This document shows positions 7,476 through 14,728 of a stretch of 64,000 nucleotides of DNA, piece by piece. The stretch lies in assembly GCA_030592645.1 (NCBI GenBank), contig JAUVIR010000003.1:9279-73278 (forward strand), in the 5' to 3' direction. Made by a program: the position numbers and the translations under genes. Numbering within the stretch: position 1 is the first letter of the stretch; each line of letters opens with the position of its first letter. Origin of the DNA: Candidatus Fermentibacterota bacterium (GTDB taxonomy: Bacteria > Fermentibacterota > Fermentibacteria > Fermentibacterales > JCC-6). The notes under the pieces are model-generated. The model made no database searches, had not been told where the DNA came from, and saw nothing but the letters and a program-made list of their open reading frames with translations.

Positions 7476-8180
7476 ATGACTGATAATAATGTGATAGTTG
7501 CAAAGGGCATTGTTAAGACCTACGATGATTCCGGAGTCCCGGTTCATGCGGTAAGGGGTATAGACTACACCCTTGAGAAGGGTGAATTCACCGCCATAAT
7601 CGGTCCATCCGGTTCGGGAAAAACGACCTTTCTGAATGTTCTCGCCGGACTCGATACACCCACAGAGGGTAAGGTATGGCTCTCCGGGAATCTGATATCC
7701 GATATGAGCGGAAAGGAGCTCTCAGACTTCAGAAGGGATCATATAGGTTTCATTTTCCAGGCTTACAACCTGTTCCCGGTACTCACCGTAGAGGAGAATG
7801 TTGAATACGTAATGCTGCTTCAGGGTGTTCCTCATGCAGAACGTCACAACAGGGTTATGAACATTCTGGAGAAAGTGGGTATCGCCGAATACGCCGGCAG
7901 GCTCCCCATGCAGCTTTCAGGCGGTCAGCAGCAAAGGGTGGCTGTAGCCAGAGCGATGGTCTCCCGTCCCTCCCTCGTCATCGCCGATGAGCCCACCGCA
8001 AACCTGGATTCAAAAACCAGCGGTGCTCTTCTTGATATGATGCGGCAGCTGAACGAGGATACGGGCATGACCTTCCTCTTCTCAACCCACGATGAGATTG
8101 TAATGAGAAGGGCAAGAAAGATAGTTATTCTGCGGGACGGAAAAATCGACGGAAAAGCATCCCCGGAAGAGATCAAGTGA
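7476..8180 (+). CDS. ABC ATPase, LolD-like
   Basis: GPSGSGKTT, IGFIFQAYNL, LSGGQQQRVAVARA, ADEPTANLD, STHD. Confidence 0.96.
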   Translation: MTDNNVIVAKGIVKTYDDSGVPVHAVRGIDYTLEKGEFTAIIGPSGSGKTTFLNVLAGLDTPTEGKVWLSGNLISDMSGKELSDFRRDHIGFIFQAYNLFPVLTVEENVEYVMLLQGVPHAERHNRVMNILEKVGIAEYAGRLPMQLSGGQQQRVAVARAMVSRPSLVIADEPTANLDSKTSGALLDMMRQLNEDTGMTFLFSTHDEIVMRRARKIVILRDGKIDGKASPEEIK

Positions 8181-9367
8181 AACTATCCGTCACCGGTCTG
8201 CTCCTTCTGACACTTTTTGCAGGAACAACCGCAAGGGCTGCTGAATTGTTCGGCACTCTGAAGCCGAAGTTTTCAATAACGGATCAACCTATTCCCGATT
8301 CTTCCTTAACATATACATTCCAGGTGCCCCTGATGCTCATGGTTCGTCACAGGGCAGGCAGTCTGAATTTTAACGCCGCCTGGATACTCTCTCCTTCGGG
8401 CGGGAATCCGGCACTCAGCGGGGAAAATGATGTTCAGGTTTTCAGGCTTGCAGACCCGGAAACCAGAATATTCCCTTCCTCATGGAACGGTGATGAATCT
8501 TTCAGCATCCTTCAGGATATCGACAGGCTGAACGTCAGGCTGAGAGTTTCAGGAGCAGCACTGACAATCGGAAGACAGGCAGTTTACTGGGGTGTAGCAA
8601 AATCCGTCAGCCCGACTGATTTCATCGCCCCCTTCCAGTACGGTACCCAGGATACGGAGTACAGAATCGGTGTAGATGCAGCAAGAGCAGTTGTGTCCAT
8701 CGGCATAATGTCCGAGCTGGATGCGGGTTACCTTTTCGGGAAGGATGCGGAATTTTCAAACAGCGGCTGCTGGCTTCGTGGCAGATTCTACTTATTCAAG
8801 ACCGATGCAACCCTTCTTGCAGCCTGCTTCAGGGAGAACCTCATGATTGGCGCAAGCCTGAACCGCTCTCTTGGAGGTGGAACTGGATGGGTGGAATGCG
8901 CCTTCGTATCAACAGAGTTCTTCTCAGACAATCCCGGTGAAGATACCTACTGGAGCCTTTCAACAGGATACGACAGGAGCTGGCTGAACGCTGCATTGTA
9001 CGGATTTCTGGAATACCATTTCAGCTCCCCGGGAACCGATGATCCGGAGAACTATCCCATAGCCCCAGCGGGCAGCGCCTTCGGGAGCGGCGGCATCTAC
9101 CTCCTGGGGAAACACTATATAAGCCCGGGGGCAAGCTGGAGTGTAACACCACTTCTTAACTTCACAGGTCAAGCGCTTGTCAACCTTACCGACGGGTCTG
9201 CTTTCCTTTCTGTAACCTCAGAATACAGCACTTCTCAGAATACCGTTATAAATGCCGGATTATCCCGGGGGCTGGGAAGCATTACAAATGATGCTGCAGG
9301 AGATGCAGGCTCCGAATTCGGAACCTGGCCAGCACATTATTCCCTTTCAGCAGGCTACTATTTCTGA
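8177..9367 (+). CDS. Putative outer-membrane beta-barrel protein
   Basis: Signal peptide; LTIGRQAVYWG, alternating beta strands, terminal YYF; GTGA overlap with ATPase stop. Confidence 0.75.
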   Translation: MKLSVTGLLLLTLFAGTTARAAELFGTLKPKFSITDQPIPDSSLTYTFQVPLMLMVRHRAGSLNFNAAWILSPSGGNPALSGENDVQVFRLADPETRIFPSSWNGDESFSILQDIDRLNVRLRVSGAALTIGRQAVYWGVAKSVSPTDFIAPFQYGTQDTEYRIGVDAARAVVSIGIMSELDAGYLFGKDAEFSNSGCWLRGRFYLFKTDATLLAACFRENLMIGASLNRSLGGGTGWVECAFVSTEFFSDNPGEDTYWSLSTGYDRSWLNAALYGFLEYHFSSPGTDDPENYPIAPAGSAFGSGGIYLLGKHYISPGASWSVTPLLNFTGQALVNLTDGSAFLSVTSEYSTSQNTVINAGLSRGLGSITNDAAGDAGSEFGTWPAHYSLSAGYYF

Positions 9368-9379
9368 TAAGTGAGTTTA

Positions 9380-9408
9380 TCCTGAGCGAGCGTTCGCGAG
9401 TCGAAGGG
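9380..9408 (+). repeat. REP-like element of the CCTGAGCG...GTCGAAGG type
   Basis: TCCTGAGCGAGCGTTCGCGAGTCGAAGGG resembles a recurrent extragenic repeat family (from recall); single copy in window. Confidence 0.55.
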
Positions 9409-9427
9409 AATCCACTCAGGGGTACCA
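9408..9427 (+). repeat. tRNA 3'-end fragment copy 1 (att-like)
   Basis: GAATCCACTCAGGGGTACCA, identical to 10222-10241. Confidence 0.85.
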
Positions 9428-9492
9428 AATAGAAAGCACCGCAGCACCGGAACCACTTTGACATTTATCATAGCCTGGAGTAATAATATAAG

Positions 9493-10041
9493 ATGCTAAA
9501 ATATTTTCTGATTCTCCAACTTCTGACTTCAGTTCCGGTTTTCTGTGGTGAGTTGCGATTCGGACCTAGACTAGGTTTACTTATGCCAGACAGAATCAAC
9601 GATTCACGCACTAATCCCGGTACAGGATTGTACTGGGGCATTTCTGTTGAATATGCATTTACCCCCTTATTTGCTGTAGATTTTACAACTGGTGCAGCTC
9701 TCGGAATGGGTGAACCGAGAGGGATTCCTATTCCCTGCCTTCCGAGTTTTTCGAATGAAGATGCTGATTATTATGCAACTAACCTAACTCTATCTGTTAA
9801 TCCTGCTGCTCTCAGCCTTGCTGCCGGTATCGCTTACTATTACATCAGAATGGACTGGGACCAGACTCTGATCGGGGAGAACACTGAATGGAAAACAATC
9901 GAGCTGAACAAGCTAGGATATTGTTTCTCAATTGGAATTGAACCCATCAGGAATGTCAGTATAGATTTTACCTTCAATTATCCCGATCTCGAACATATCT
10001 GGGGTGTTTTAAGCATCACGACGATGCCTTTTAAGTTATGA
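9493..10041 (+). CDS. Small secreted protein, probable outer-membrane beta-barrel
   Basis: Signal peptide; amphipathic strands FGPRLGLLMP, GLYWGISVEYAF, YCFSIGIE; AT-richer than flanks. Confidence 0.65.
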   Translation: MLKYFLILQLLTSVPVFCGELRFGPRLGLLMPDRINDSRTNPGTGLYWGISVEYAFTPLFAVDFTTGAALGMGEPRGIPIPCLPSFSNEDADYYATNLTLSVNPAALSLAAGIAYYYIRMDWDQTLIGENTEWKTIELNKLGYCFSIGIEPIRNVSIDFTFNYPDLEHIWGVLSITTMPFKL

Positions 10042-10217
10042 GTTCAAAGTAGCGTTATAGTCATTTATTTGGTTCACCGAATTTCTGATTATTAGATTTC
10101 AGGGATTAGGTATGGACGCTGCAGCAACTGCTTCTCGTCAAAACCGACTTGACTTGCATGCCTATCAATGAATACTCAATTTCAACATTATGAACTCAAA
10201 CTTCTGCAAAGGTGAAA

Positions 10218-10241
10218 GTTCGAATCCACTCAGGGGTACCA
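10218..10241 (+). repeat. tRNA 3'-end fragment copy 2 (att-like)
   Basis: GTTCGAATCCACTCAGGGGTACCA = T-loop, T-stem 3' strand, acceptor 3' strand, discriminator A, CCA; no tRNA 5' half upstream. Confidence 0.88.
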
Positions 10242-10392
10242 GTCCCTCCAGTTTTACGAGTGATCAAATATGCTGTAGATTGTTTCCATTGTCTAATGTT
10301 TGAATATTATGATATTGATTCGGATTAGTGACGCGAAAAAGTATAATGGTGTATTTTAATACAGGCCATCTACCATCATTGCGGGGGAAACA

Positions 10393-11682
10393 ATGGAGAT
10401 TATCTTTGTTCTATTATCACTTAGCACCTTAACTACTACTGAACTATCAGAATGTGAATATATATTTGATACATTCTCATGTGAATCCACAATTATCTCA
10501 CCATTTGAATTCTTCACTCATAATAATGATAGTGGAGTACCCTTCGTGTGGCGCGCGCAATTCACACCTGATAATAGATATAGGATTCTGGTATTCGATG
10601 AGAATGAACTGCTGATAATTGAGGGAATTGATGATAGCTTAGAATCCGATAGTGAATATACTATTAATAGAATAGTATTTGAGAATTATCCTGATGGGAA
10701 CCATCTTAGACATCCCTTATACTCACAAAACCTTGAGTATGCATTATTTACAGGTAAAGATACTATTGATGTTTATACACATTACCTGGTAAACACAGTG
10801 ACTTGTGAGATTGACACTCTTCCATTCTCTTCACCTGGATGCGCAAGACCATCGAATGATGGCAGTCTAGCGACACTGTGCTTTACTGTACCCCCATTGG
10901 GCATGATCCCAGAAGAGTTTGCCTGGCCTTGTGTGAAACTCTCCAGATTCAATCAAATTACTGGTCAATTCGATTCTACAATTATTTTGTCAGATGTAAG
11001 CTTTCCACGTGTATCAAGGAATCACGATAGACTATTAGTTTTCTATTTCGATGGTACTATCAGTAACATTGAGGCTTATGATGAGCAGGTAAACAGGAAT
11101 TGGAGCATTTTTGAAGATGGATATGAACAGCTATATTTAGCTTCTACTACTTTTATCAGAAGGTGTGGATCCGCATTAAGGGGGTATCTACTAAGTTCCG
11201 GTGAGGTGATTTGGGAGGACAATTCCATTGATTACAGCGATACTTGGTTCAGAAAAGTAAAGATATCAATGGATGAGCATACAATTGGATTACAATTCAC
11301 TGGAATTGCTGATAGCCAACACTCTAGCAACGGATCAGTATTTCTTCTTCAGCATATGCCTGATTCGCAATCTGTAACTATTTCTAGTCTTACAGACATT
11401 TATGGAGAGCTCGGTAGTATTCAACTGTGTTCAGTTTCCGATAATGGAAGGTTACTCTTCTCTTATCACCCAGATCGAATGAATCCTAGTTTAAGGAAAT
11501 ACATAATTACAGATGAGTCATGCGTACCCATATGGCATTCATCAGATTCTGTTGTATTCACTAGTGAGGCGGTGTTCTCTCAATATGGAGATAGGATTAT
11601 TTATGAAAGGAAAGATGATAAGCTAGTAATATCGAATATACAGCAGATCTCTATTGATGATTCTGTGGATATTCATCATTGA
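10393..11682 (+). CDS. Secreted beta-rich (propeller-like) hypothetical protein
   Basis: 429 aa, hydrophobic N-terminus, blade-like motifs FTPDNRY, SNDGS, ISMDEH, VSDNGR, FSQYGD; AT-rich. Confidence 0.7.
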   Translation: MEIIFVLLSLSTLTTTELSECEYIFDTFSCESTIISPFEFFTHNNDSGVPFVWRAQFTPDNRYRILVFDENELLIIEGIDDSLESDSEYTINRIVFENYPDGNHLRHPLYSQNLEYALFTGKDTIDVYTHYLVNTVTCEIDTLPFSSPGCARPSNDGSLATLCFTVPPLGMIPEEFAWPCVKLSRFNQITGQFDSTIILSDVSFPRVSRNHDRLLVFYFDGTISNIEAYDEQVNRNWSIFEDGYEQLYLASTTFIRRCGSALRGYLLSSGEVIWEDNSIDYSDTWFRKVKISMDEHTIGLQFTGIADSQHSSNGSVFLLQHMPDSQSVTISSLTDIYGELGSIQLCSVSDNGRLLFSYHPDRMNPSLRKYIITDESCVPIWHSSDSVVFTSEAVFSQYGDRIIYERKDDKLVISNIQQISIDDSVDIHH

Positions 11683-11756
11683 TAGCTGAGTAGATTTAGT
11701 CCTTCATTGTAAGGAATCTGTAAGTGTAACCTTCCACAATAGAAGTTCTAAGAGTG

Positions 11757-11773
11757 TCCACTACGGGGTACCA
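11757..11773 (+). repeat. tRNA 3'-end fragment copy 3 (degenerate)
   Basis: TCCACTACGGGGTACCA, 15/17 match to copies 1 and 2 (CA swapped to AC). Confidence 0.75.
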
Positions 11774-11820
11774 AAAGGGACGGAGGTAATTGGAAAATCT
11801 AATTACCTCCGTCCCTTTTT
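11773..11820 (+). terminator. Intrinsic terminator, probably bidirectional
   Basis: Perfect 19-bp inverted repeat AAAAGGGACGGAGGTAATT (11773-11791) / AATTACCTCCGTCCCTTTT (11801-11819). Confidence 0.9.
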
Positions 11821-11892
11821 CGTTACAGTGTTCAACATCAATTGACATCCTGCCTTCTACCTATGATTCTTGAACGATTGGAGGGGTATTAT

Positions 11893-13719
11893 ATGTATAA
11901 AAGAATCCTGACTCTTGTAATTCTCGGTTCCTTAAACCTTGCATATGCTGATTCCGCGGTTCAGACTGATTGGTCTGGTGGTTCAGAAGTAGCGGGACCT
12001 GTACTAGAGTTGAGTGATCAGTTTGATAACGAAACAGATATCAGGTGGAACAGCGATCTGGGCGATATAGAACTCCACAAGGAATTTTTCCAGCACACAA
12101 TTAGTTCATATTTTAATTCATACTCCGTCTACTCGGCAGATATTGATGGTGATGGAGATATGGACGTTCTTGCCGCTTTGTTTCAATCAAGTAACGTCAG
12201 CTGGTTTGACAACATCGATGGTTCGGGAACATCCTGGATTGAGCATCTTATTGCAGAAGATCATATCTACATTATTTCCGTATACTCTGAAGACGTTGAT
12301 TCCGATGGCGATATGGATATCATCGGTGCCGCACTCCATGATGATGAGATCTTGTGGTGGGAGAATATCGACGGCTCTGGTACATCCTGGACAGAGCATA
12401 TCATTACAGGAACCTACGACGGTGCCAGCTGTGTACACTCAGTGGATATAGATAATGATGGAGATAAGGACGTAATCAGTGCTGCACGATATGCCGACGA
12501 TATCACCTGGTGGGAGAACATCGATGGTTCGGGAACATCGTGGACAGAGCATACTGTCGATGGAAATTATGATGGTGCCGAAATGGTTTACTCCGATGAC
12601 ATTGACGGTGACGGAGACATGGACATCCTTGGTACCGCATTCGAGGGGGATAAAGTTGTCTGGTGGGAAAACATGAACGGTTCGGGTACAAGCTGGACCG
12701 CACATATCATTGATGAAAATTATGACGGGGCCTGCGCAGTTAATACTGAGGATATAGATGGTGACGGAGATAAGGACGTTCTGAGCACTGCGTTTGAATC
12801 AGGAGAAGCGACATGGTGGGAGAATTGCGATGGCTCTGGTACATCCTGGATTGAGCATACGGTCAATGATGATTTTGCCGGTGCGCGTTCAATATGTGCC
12901 GGGGATATAGACGAAGACGGAGACATGGACATCTTTGGTGCGGCTTTACTGGACTGTGAAATAGCCTTCTGGGAAAATCTCGACGGTTCCGCTACATCCT
13001 GGGCAGAGTATACAGTTGATCGTGCTATCTATTGTGGTAACTCCGTTTGCCTTGCAGATATCGATGGGGACAGCACTCTGGAGATTCTAGGAACACTTGC
13101 ACCCACGGGTATCTGCTGGTGGGAAGCTAATGGTTATTCTCTCACTGGTATTCTTGAATCCAGTGTTCTCGATGTGCAGGCGGAGCCCTCATGGGATTAT
13201 ATCCAGTGGAATTCGGAAACTCCTGCAGGAACATCCGTCTCATTCCAGGTCAGATCATCCGATGATCACGCAAATATGGGAGACTGGTCAGACACCATCT
13301 TCACTCCCTGCAGTCTGGTGGGCATCTTAGTTGATAGTGAACGGTATGTTCAGTACAGGATACTTCTAGAAACAATTACAAACATTTCCACCCCGACACT
13401 CAACGATATCACTATCAGCTGGAATCTGTTAGGAATCAATGAAACTGCAGGGCCGATTCCTCAAGTACCGGAACTGCTTCCCATAGCACCTAATCCATCT
13501 GCAGGATCACCAATGATCAGGTTCGGGTTACCCGAACCAGCTTTCGTTGGTATTTGTATCTTCGACCTTTCGGGCAGGCTCGTCAGTGAGGTCAGTGGAG
13601 ATGAGTACTCCCCCGGGTATCACGAAGTTCTACTTGCAGACCTGAATTCCGGGATCTACTTCTGCAGGATGATCACAGGAGACTTCACAGCAACGCTACG
13701 ATTTATTGTTGTAGAGTAA
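11893..13719 (+). CDS. FG-GAP/VCBS repeat protein with T9SS type A-like C-terminal domain
   Basis: Signal peptide; about seven ~50-aa repeats DIDGDGDMDV...WWENIDGSGTSWTEH; C-terminal PNPS..IFDLSGRLV..GIYFCRM. Confidence 0.9.
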   Translation: MYKRILTLVILGSLNLAYADSAVQTDWSGGSEVAGPVLELSDQFDNETDIRWNSDLGDIELHKEFFQHTISSYFNSYSVYSADIDGDGDMDVLAALFQSSNVSWFDNIDGSGTSWIEHLIAEDHIYIISVYSEDVDSDGDMDIIGAALHDDEILWWENIDGSGTSWTEHIITGTYDGASCVHSVDIDNDGDKDVISAARYADDITWWENIDGSGTSWTEHTVDGNYDGAEMVYSDDIDGDGDMDILGTAFEGDKVVWWENMNGSGTSWTAHIIDENYDGACAVNTEDIDGDGDKDVLSTAFESGEATWWENCDGSGTSWIEHTVNDDFAGARSICAGDIDEDGDMDIFGAALLDCEIAFWENLDGSATSWAEYTVDRAIYCGNSVCLADIDGDSTLEILGTLAPTGICWWEANGYSLTGILESSVLDVQAEPSWDYIQWNSETPAGTSVSFQVRSSDDHANMGDWSDTIFTPCSLVGILVDSERYVQYRILLETITNISTPTLNDITISWNLLGINETAGPIPQVPELLPIAPNPSAGSPMIRFGLPEPAFVGICIFDLSGRLVSEVSGDEYSPGYHEVLLADLNSGIYFCRMITGDFTATLRFIVVE

Positions 13720-13804
13720 CTGTAGAAATCGATATTCTGAAATGATAAGGCTATTGTACAGTACCCTGCAGACCTTTATCTTCGGGAGTACTGGGAGGTA
13801 TCGA

Positions 13805-14728
13805 ATGAAAACTGTCCGGATTGTTTCACTGATTATTCTATTGACCGCAGCAAATTCCACGTTTGGCGGTTCTCTTCCATTTTCCCGTTCCGGTCTGATC
13901 GATATCCCCACAGCTTCCATGCTTCTGCACACGCAGATCAAGCTGGGAGGTGCAGCCACAGCGTTCAGCTACCAGAATGCGGACAGCACTACTGAAAATG
14001 ATTTTGCCGTAGGAGCCCATCTTGAATTCGGTCTTTTCGGCAGGGTTCAGTTAGGGATCACTTGGCTTGGAGATGCCGGGATCTCCGGCAATGTCCGGGT
14101 ACTTGCCATCCACGAAAGTACGACTATCCCCGCGATTGCATTCGGATGCCAGAATATCACGGGAGAAAAGAATTACGAATTCTTCCGGGATTCGCAGGAC
14201 AGTCTTTACAGATATGAGGAATCACAAAATTTCTCCGCATACATGGTGTTAACAAAAAGCCTTGATTACTTCTCCCGAATACCTGTCTGCCTTCATCTGG
14301 GTTACGGCATTGGAAGGTTCAGGCAGGGTGAAAATTCGGATTTTGACGGAATATCAAACCCTGTAAGAGGTCTTTTCGGCGGAATTGACTACCATCCCAC
14401 CAGAAATGTATCGCTCATGCTGGAATGGGACGGAAGAGATGCCAACTTAGGCGCATCATTCACGATGAACCCGAATGTCCGCTTCCTTGGAGCAATTGCG
14501 GAACTTGAACAGCTTGCAATGAGTAACAGAGATCTCTCGGATGTCATGCAGAATGTCAAATTCAGCCTCGGAGTGGAAATCACATTAGGCCCAATCCTCA
14601 ACGCTGTCACTCTCCAATCCTTCAGTGAACTGACCCAGCGTGAAACCGATGATCTTCTCCTTAAGCTTGAGGCAATTAGATCGCATGCCAGGGAAGATAT
14701 CGAAGAACTTAAGCACGATGTTCCCTAA
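13805..14728 (+). CDS. YjbH-like outer-membrane beta-barrel protein
   Basis: Signal peptide; SGLIDIPTA, PAIAFG, LHLGYG, GLFGGI, LMLEWDGRDANLG. Confidence 0.7.
   Translation: MKTVRIVSLIILLTAANSTFGGSLPFSRSGLIDIPTASMLLHTQIKLGGAATAFSYQNADSTTENDFAVGAHLEFGLFGRVQLGITWLGDAGISGNVRVLAIHESTTIPAIAFGCQNITGEKNYEFFRDSQDSLYRYEESQNFSAYMVLTKSLDYFSRIPVCLHLGYGIGRFRQGENSDFDGISNPVRGLFGGIDYHPTRNVSLMLEWDGRDANLGASFTMNPNVRFLGAIAELEQLAMSNRDLSDVMQNVKFSLGVEITLGPILNAVTLQSFSELTQRETDDLLLKLEAIRSHAREDIEELKHDVP

Follow-up and report, generated by a model that had tools for sequence, protein, structure and literature searches.

A 64,000-nucleotide stretch of a Candidatus Fermentibacterota genome (GenBank assembly GCA_030592645.1, contig JAUVIR010000003.1, positions 9,279 to 73,278; hereafter the window) carries, directly behind the stop codon of a conserved protein gene, a row of small AT-rich gene units bounded by short direct repeats that resemble a tRNA 3' end. 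One way to understand this row, and the one that we consider probable, with real room for doubt, is that non-autonomous islets have been stacked up at a secondary attachment site, most likely by a large serine recombinase (LSR). Related genomes hold different DNA, or almost none, at the same place; one unit recurs at other loci; and LSR genes of the genus, at 11 of 14 loci, adjoin tRNA 3' ends or the same sites. The source genome is called G000 (73 contigs, 93% complete, 34 tRNA genes); G-numbers are genomes, C-numbers contigs and L-numbers stretches from genomes of the genus. Genus-level searches covered 26 genomes, and DNA matches to the units were sought in 30 relatives.

The array and its sites

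The window has just two exact copies of the repeat GAATCCACTCAGGGGTACCA, one at 9408-9427 and the other at 10222-10241, each on the + strand; 100 shuffles gave no match. Copy 2 is longer on the upstream side (AGTTCGAATCC, 10217-10241); a third copy, TCCACTACGGGGTACCA (11757-11773), shows 15/17 identity to copies 1 and 2 and is embedded in a longer conserved site, AGTTCTAAGAGTGTCCACTACGGGGTACCA, at 11744-11773. The three copies are co-oriented, that is, direct repeats bounding units, and are spaced by 814 bp and ~1532 bp; each unit holds one + strand open reading frame (ORF). GC content is 0.34-0.45 over 9200-12000, against ~0.47-0.55 in the flanks. Copies 2 and 3 represent the two recurring forms of the site: class B, a true T-loop-to-CCA copy, and class C, which is longer, with consensus AGTTCKAARNGNNTCCACYACGGGGTACCA. 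Copy 1 is a tRNA-like tail joined to a truncated copy of a ~75-nt repeat, here called the scaffold, of which 9370-9407 is the 3' part. The features are as follows:

8177..9367, + strand: left-boundary gene, 396 aa, conserved, no Pfam family; closes an operon for an FtsX/FtsX/ABC transporter; the array adjoins the stop codon of the gene
9370..9407, + strand: scaffold, 5'-truncated copy (GTGAGTTTATCCTGAGCGAGCG...GAGTCGAAGG), from pattern matches in genus genomes
9408..9427, + strand: site copy 1, tRNA-like tail GAATCCACTCAGGGGTACCA, from the exact-repeat search
9428..10216, + strand: unit 1; ORF 9493-10041, 182 aa, hydrophobic N-terminus, orphan
10217..10241, + strand: site copy 2, AGTTCGAATCCACTCAGGGGTACCA, true T-loop form (class B), from the repeat search
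10242..11743, + strand: unit 2; ORF 10393-11682, 429 aa, orphan, GC ~0.34-0.41
11744..11773, + strand: site copy 3, AGTTCTAAGAGTGTCCACTACGGGGTACCA, class C, a genus-wide site class
11774..11820, no strand: perfect palindromic hairpin, then a T run; dispersed repeat with copies at at least 15 loci of the genome
11821..13741, + strand: unit 3, FG-GAP repeat protein with a type IX secretion system (T9SS) sorting tail (Pfam, NCBIfam)
13742..14728, + strand: right-boundary gene, conserved, YjbH-like (Pfam)

The operon neighbours of the left-boundary gene match FtsX, MacB_PCD and ABC_tran in Pfam. The ORF of unit 3 spans 11842-13719, with its likely start at ATG 11893 and its stop at 13719; no site lies downstream of it within the window. 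A preliminary description, made from the letters of the window, had reported the three repeats with their adjoining hairpin, the two unit lengths with one AT-rich + strand gene each, and the absence of integrase and tRNA, and had taken the repeats to delimit discrete non-autonomous gene units. Repeat search, spacing, ORF list and GC content bear this out. ARAGORN finds no tRNA in the window, the array beginning at a protein-gene stop codon and not at a tRNA; searches with Phage_integrase (PF00589) and Resolvase give no match on the contig of the window.

The tRNA origin proposed in that description stands in part. Derivation of the repeats from the T-loop-to-CCA end of tRNA-Arg is supported by comparison with the tRNA genes, the nearest real one being tRNA-Arg(CCG) on G000:C64, which ends GGTTCGAATCCCGTCGGGGGTACCA. 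An exact parent, however, is lacking: no tRNA ending CCACTCAGGGGTACCA is present in the 26 genus genomes, and the pattern GGTTCGAATCCACTNNGGGG recovers from them the window's own copy and two one-mismatch non-tRNA fragments. At other loci tRNA genes do head arrays, namely tRNA-Arg(CCG) in G000:C64, G015:C63 and G010:C56 and tRNA-Arg(TCT) in G016:C31 and G031:C14; in three genomes tRNA-Arg(CCG) is followed by a ~39 nt linker and then a second site, GTTCGAAATACCTCCACTACGGGGTACCA. Because the site in the window adjoins the stop codon of a protein gene, and no parent tRNA heads the array, this array looks like a secondary, non-tRNA attachment site.

Class C is the commonest form of the site and matches no tRNA of the genus. 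Copy 3 had been taken for the most degenerate copy, and so for the oldest, next to a terminator; it belongs instead to a distinct conserved class, from which no order of age can be inferred. Its 17-mer occurs identically at three places in G000 and also in many relatives. A search with the 17-mer core (at most two mismatches, reversed pattern as control) gave 115 matches in 22 of the 26 genomes, the control 10. The site measures ~25-31 bp; 55 aligned class C sites share a ~31-nt conserved block between unconserved flanks, with a core conserved to ~90% or more at most of the ~31 positions. Orientation and spacing were counted at 21 loci, with 53 sites and 32 gaps between neighbouring sites. All 53 sites share the strand of their neighbours at the locus, with 0 on the opposite strand; the gaps measure 39-40 nt in nine cases (the linker), 73-77 nt in two and 0.5-2.5 kb in 18, the remaining three being larger.

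Site-bounded units run from ~0.5 to 6.5 kb and carry one to three genes each, on either strand. Among the array ORFs scanned (67 of the 129 listed) are AbiEi/AbiEii, HicAB, MazF, RES, nucleotidyltransferases, Fic, KAP NTPase, GNAT and CotH, as well as one IS110 transposase, numerous orphans, and T9SS-tailed proteins of the FG-GAP and PQQ-propeller types; the 67 include no tyrosine or serine recombinase. The preliminary description saw a system for capturing surface proteins, but with toxin-antitoxin pairs, Fic, GNAT, CotH and a transposase on both strands the cargo of the genus is broader than that. IS110 was considered and set aside: the single transposase lies inside one unit (L092) and G000 has none; it is read as a passenger.

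Tandem 68-nt units, each a site plus the ~39-nt linker (GATTTCAGAATTTAGAACTC...) with an inverted TTAGAAC/GTTCKAA pair, are found at G000:C64:47697-47764, in L088, L089, L092 and L094, and at other places; one such unit stands 3' of tRNA-Arg(CCG) in three genomes. A repeated motif, AAACAGTGCCACCCACC..., follows four of 72 sites on the 3' side (L067, L083, L086 and L091). A look by eye for dyad symmetry within the site, of the dif or LSR type, gave nothing consistent.

The locus in related genomes, and its recombinases

The left-boundary gene is 83-89% identical in G003, G004, G011, G012 and G015, and homology stops at window 9365-9372; it restarts at ~13725-13750 in G003, G011 and G015. What lies between differs from genome to genome. 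In G011, a different species, the locus is ~50 bp with no site, an empty site; in G003 it is ~900 bp with a single unrelated GC-rich gene; in G012 there are other genes and a break in synteny. A class B site adjoins the stop codon in G004, where the contig ends after it, and in G015 (C177), where an AT-rich 15-kb island follows. A site of this kind also stands before a different multi-unit array in each of G034 and G036, and in G017 homology is seen for the left gene only. By this tally five of eight relatives have a tRNA-Arg-like site directly after the stop codon, G004, G015, G034 and G036 being those itemised. Unit 3 is absent from the empty site of G011; its homologues are site-flanked at L098:204-2078, L085:7169-8992 and L099:841-2526. 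Because the empty site lacks the FG-GAP gene, that gene belongs to the variable stretch. As judged from these alignments, the units are inserted foreign DNA rather than resident genes.

Variable content at one locus had been predicted for the array, and unit 1 goes further, as it is found in two relatives at other places. In G003 it lies at a different locus, upstream of rex (93% identity, both boundaries shared), and in G004 at a third, beside phoU (87% identity, the downstream boundary alone shared). Homology between G000 and G003 begins directly after GGGGTACCA and stops at GGTGAAAGTTC; comparison of the three genomes confines the crossover to somewhere between GTTC and GGGGTACCA. In G003 the unit stands behind a decayed tRNA-Arg pseudogene, which G000:C33 also has. 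This pseudogene (G000:C33:2105-2190; G003:C133, reverse complement 270-350), uncalled by ARAGORN, heads an array upstream of rex that consists of one NYN-domain unit in G000 and of two to three other units in G003, window unit 1 included.

Unit 2 has no DNA match among the 30 relatives searched. The ORFs of units 1 and 2 are orphans, with three relatives each among 5.8 billion proteins. Parts of the stretch are contained in 20 public runs, of which four were compared as assembled contigs, a form that cannot reveal rare variants. The units are present at 100% identity in runs of three studies. No unit-skipping joint occurs in the contigs of the four runs, where the only joints lie within the FG-GAP repeats, a result uninformative on excision. 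These contigs break at the hairpin repeat, and a depth spike in those of run X1 fits a multi-copy sequence.

The enzyme behind such an array is likely, on the gene neighbourhoods that follow, to be an LSR rather than a tyrosine integrase of the classical tRNA-targeting type. The 15-kb island that G015 has at the locus of the window opens with a ~535-aa LSR gene, on the reverse strand and adjoining the class B site. Five LSRs were scanned, and all have the Resolvase, Recombinase and Zn_ribbon_recom domains. A search with the G015 protein returned 26 matches in 10 of the 26 genomes. Among 14 LSR loci, 11 adjoin a tRNA 3' end or a site: in eight the neighbour is the 3' end of a convergent tRNA gene (three Glu, two Gln, two Ser and one Arg-TCT) and in three a tRNA-Arg-like site without a tRNA, including G015:C177; one more lies ~265 nt from tRNA-Arg(TCT), and two are near neither tRNA nor site. 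The LSR genes that overlap or adjoin convergent tRNA-Gln, -Glu, -Ser and -Arg 3' ends are in L110, L111, L112, L114, L116, L117, L120 and L122. An LSR beside attL is seen in relatives only (G015:C177, G032:C19, G031:C14 and G004:C35). The islands of G032:C19 and G031:C14 have the LSR at the start and class C sites at the end; on G015:C14 the order is tRNA-Glu, an LSR pair, ~29 kb, and then AGTTCGAA-N13-GGGTCGCCA, which is the class C format with a Glu tail. A 2014 paper stated that no serine integrase was known to use tRNA genes as targets.

Once integrated (L021:4776-6503, -), the G015 LSR has a reading frame that crosses the attachment site and continues for ~60 codons on the antisense side of the gene next to it, so that the C-terminus of the enzyme is changed by integration.

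G000 itself has little of this kind. Its serine-recombinase trace is one 97-aa Recombinase-domain fragment (C45:16994-17185, -), ~1.2 kb past tRNA-Ser(GCT) and a scaffold. Its tyrosine recombinases are a XerC-like, a XerD-like and a third Xer-like protein, one integron integrase at a contig end (C14:27393-28616, -; TIGR02249, 327.7 bits where the cut-off is 265) and one truncated second copy of the latter (C26:17389-18561, -). No intI or attI stands beside the array in the window, the intI genes being confined to contigs C14 and C26.

Weighing the explanations

If the stack was driven by LSRs, the sites would be attachment sites of enzymes that target tRNA 3' ends, and autonomous islands would begin on the left with a reverse-strand LSR gene adjoining a tRNA or a site. 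The integrating element would bring a tRNA 3' end of its own; integration at a secondary site outside tRNA genes would then leave a tRNA end without a tRNA, and in this way a tRNA end would come to touch the stop codon of a protein gene. Later integrations, together with loss of the recombinase gene, would give a stack of non-autonomous units, which could move only with an LSR supplied in trans. The trans-acting integrase of the preliminary description survives to this extent: the window has no recombinase, so that any must act in trans, but an LSR is likelier than the tRNA-targeting tyrosine integrase envisaged there. Since there is no intact LSR in the assembled 93% of G000, the array in the window is probably stranded at present.

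Several observations weigh against this account. The window has no LSR, and G000 has the 97-aa fragment only; 16 of the 26 genomes give no LSR match, though many of them carry sites (G003, G007 and G016 for example), and the Recombinase domain is absent from 15 of the 26. Sequence resembling the LSR-side arm follows only three of 72 sites. We know of no LSR that recombines two identical sites; trans-mobilisation of single units is therefore conjecture. There is no excision or circle junction in the public contigs, which cannot show rare forms, and the crossover is narrowed to an interval, not mapped to a point. The presence of an integron integrase tracks the number of sites across genomes, a correlation confounded by relatedness. 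Finally, copy 1 sits on a truncated scaffold, where relatives have a class B site; the left junction therefore appears to have been remodelled.

A bolder version of the LSR account makes the sites a working, integron-like exchange, in which single-gene units are moved in trans among tRNA and non-tRNA docking sites throughout the genus, and the scaffold is functional in the choice of target rather than a scar. We entertain this version tentatively, as a possibility that is more doubtful than not.

Much of the same evidence can be turned the other way, by supposing that the units are decayed remnants of successive large islands, reshuffled by homologous recombination and deletion and never mobile one gene at a time. 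A recombinase is absent from the window and from the scanned arrays; unit 1 has diverged about as far as the core genome (93% vs 89% for G003; 87% vs 84% for G004), which fits long vertical residence; the perfect identity of the units across three studies comes with no variant junctions; and the left junction in G000 looks deleted, its scaffold being truncated. Decay, however, would erode the site core along with the flanks, yet it is the core alone that is so highly conserved. Units down to 39-40 nt recur in tandem; unit 1 occupies three loci, with both ends defined by sites in G000 and G003; arrays stand at several non-tRNA loci; and the 67 scanned ORFs include no integrase fragments. The fossil explanation is thus unlikely, if still one to reckon with. 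More distant is the idea that the site is a repeat of the repetitive extragenic palindromic (REP) or miniature inverted-repeat transposable element type, scattered between resident genes that only look like cassettes. G000 is rich in dispersed palindromic repeats, and the 68-nt unit does occur in tandem; the hairpin at 11774-11820 fits the REP/REPIN-type family. The sites do not: they are non-palindromic, they bound variable DNA, and they are co-oriented 53 to 0. Gene content at the one locus differs completely among genomes, one of which has the empty site; the insert is AT-rich; and the sites are tied to tRNA-Arg genes and to LSR genes. We regard such a repeat as very improbable.

Cassettes moved by a trans-acting tyrosine recombinase, IntI or a Xer-like protein, with the ~30-bp site as an analogue of attC or dif, make a livelier alternative, if a quite unlikely one. 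G000 encodes the integron integrase and its truncated copy; the site-rich genomes mostly have IntI, and most genomes free of IntI have 0-1 good sites; the cargo, with its toxin-antitoxin pairs, GNAT proteins and orphans, is like that of chromosomal integrons. An inverted TTAGAAC...GTTCTAA pair lies upstream of 16 of the 72 sites, where ~5 are expected. Nearly all of these 16, however, are the 68-nt linker unit, and the other 56 sites have no upstream inverted partner, so that attC-like folding was dropped as a general feature. The correlation with IntI is confounded by genome completeness as well as by relatedness, and genes lie on either strand. The preliminary description expected tyrosine integrases near other copies of the repeat; they were sought, and none stands beside site-bearing arrays, nor does any tyrosine recombinase lie within ~9 kb of a site on the contigs that hold both. 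Three arrays linked to intI (G015:C169, G012:C72 and G007:C67) have 0 tRNA-like sites, and a base-by-base reading of the one on G015:C169 finds classical attC (ATAAC...GTTAT). Two distinct cassette systems thus coexist in the genus, and what had been called an integron-like system differs from the integrons themselves in its sites, which are not attC. The analogy describes the appearance of the array, not its working or its family. (The intI-linked integron arrays of the relatives are in L050, L049 and L053.)

Known systems and accompanying repeats

The closest published case is that of the ssrA islands of Dehalococcoides. According to McMurdie et al. 2011 (PMC3146451), these islands stand in tandem arrays between 20-bp repeats that copy the tmRNA 3' end, with a reverse-strand LSR beside attL; 15 units without an integration module are read there as cis-mobilizable elements. 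With those islands (PMC3146451) the Fermentibacterota loci share tandem arrangement, direct repeats of ~20 bp resembling a tRNA 3' end, a reverse-strand LSR (~530 aa) beside attL, a conserved element-side motif just upstream of the repeat, units without a module, and low-GC, strain-specific cargo. They differ in their targets, which are tRNA-Arg, -Gln, -Glu and -Ser and non-tRNA secondary sites here, and one tmRNA gene there. The units here are also mostly single-gene, of 0.5-2.5 kb, in arrays at several chromosomal loci; class C matches no tRNA of the genus, and the 68-nt units form empty tandems. The comparison of the LSRs here with DsiB is one of arrangement.

With chromosomal integrons the arrays have in common their rows of small orphan or toxin-antitoxin units, a conserved site between them, variability among relatives, and a recombinase outside the units; they differ in having no adjacent intI or attI, sites that are not folded attC, and genes on either strand. 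Unlike Islander-type islands, they have no tyrosine integrase, either on the window contig or beside the site-bearing arrays. The staphylococcal cassette chromosome (SCC, SCCmec) composites offer a further parallel: these elements enter the 3' end of the conserved gene rlmH by way of Ccr LSRs; direct repeats bound the elements; and tandem arrays include elements without a recombinase, open to movement in trans. Their target, rlmH, is not a tRNA-like sequence, however, the elements are larger, and cargo and host phylum differ. PMC3146451 also names SCC. The tycheposons, tRNA-linked islands of Prochlorococcus, are described (10.1101/2020.12.28.424599) as stacks at tRNA genes with partial tRNA copies between them and degenerate remnants; their recombinases are of the tyrosine or large serine type, and their cargo is niche-related. 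They differ in having their own integrase and replication modules and intact tRNA genes, whereas most units here have neither module and the window array has no tRNA. The literature searched, in part as abstracts, contained no LSR-linked stacks of single genes at tRNA-like sites and no mobile elements of this phylum.

If the LSR account is right, tRNA genes and tRNA-like secondary sites would be LSR targets in an uncultured sediment phylum, and LSRs, a different enzyme family from that of integrons, would build stacks of single genes with the behaviour of integron arrays. Streamlined uncultured bacteria would then have a route for trading surface proteins, toxin-antitoxin pairs and defence genes, and natural pairs of LSR and short site would become a directly testable set.

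The scaffold deserves attention of its own, as a genus-wide structured element of ~75 nt with tRNA-specific tails and without a match in Rfam. Its pattern, GGTGAGTTTAYMCTGAGCGAG, gives 112 matches in 22 of the 26 genomes and 0 in the reversed control. It usually lies 60-140 nt downstream of a tRNA gene, and is always fused to a T-loop-to-CCA copy of that tRNA's own end; there are at least eight different tails. RNAalifold supports a scaffold hairpin with compensatory changes (for example, pair counts CG 20/UA 5, CG 20/AU 8 and CG 13/UA 10), and such changes are seen in two stems; to the eye, the tail begins with letters that a 5' arm pairs with as well. Rfam searches of window 9000-12200 and nine loci return only tRNAs and chance matches, none for site, scaffold or hairpin; a hammerhead or other ribozyme, considered by eye, was dropped after this. 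Candidate identities for the scaffold are a structured RNA, a miniature non-coding element, and an element-side arm belonging to some other lineage of integrases. That scaffold and tail together might act like a guide RNA was also weighed, as a conjecture. Copies in G000 lie at C1:14896-14960, C45:15682-15745, C36:16685-16760 (-), the ends of C71 and C33, and C29:32955. The ends of C71 and C33 (32720-32950, reverse complement) overlap at the terminator of tRNA-Gln(CTG) and the scaffold; these contigs therefore join, and the assembly breaks at these repeats.

The hairpin after copy 3 was first read as a tRNA terminator pushed downstream by successive integrations. Its arms (11777-11791 and 11801-11815) are extended by A/T pairs to ~18-19 bp and followed by a T run, and it could, from this structure, also serve as a terminator. 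The sequence (GGGACGGAGGTAATT...AATTACCTCCGTCCC) is nevertheless a dispersed palindromic repeat found at at least 15 places in G000: C10:35211; C21:15959 and 17087; C25:35912 and 37120; C27:35570; C31:26066; C33:3244; C34:7082; C36:14354; C42:10064; C49:18743; C52:42327; and C61:45246, besides the copy in the window. Two copies stand 3' of tRNA-Leu genes, and two 3' of the last site of an array.

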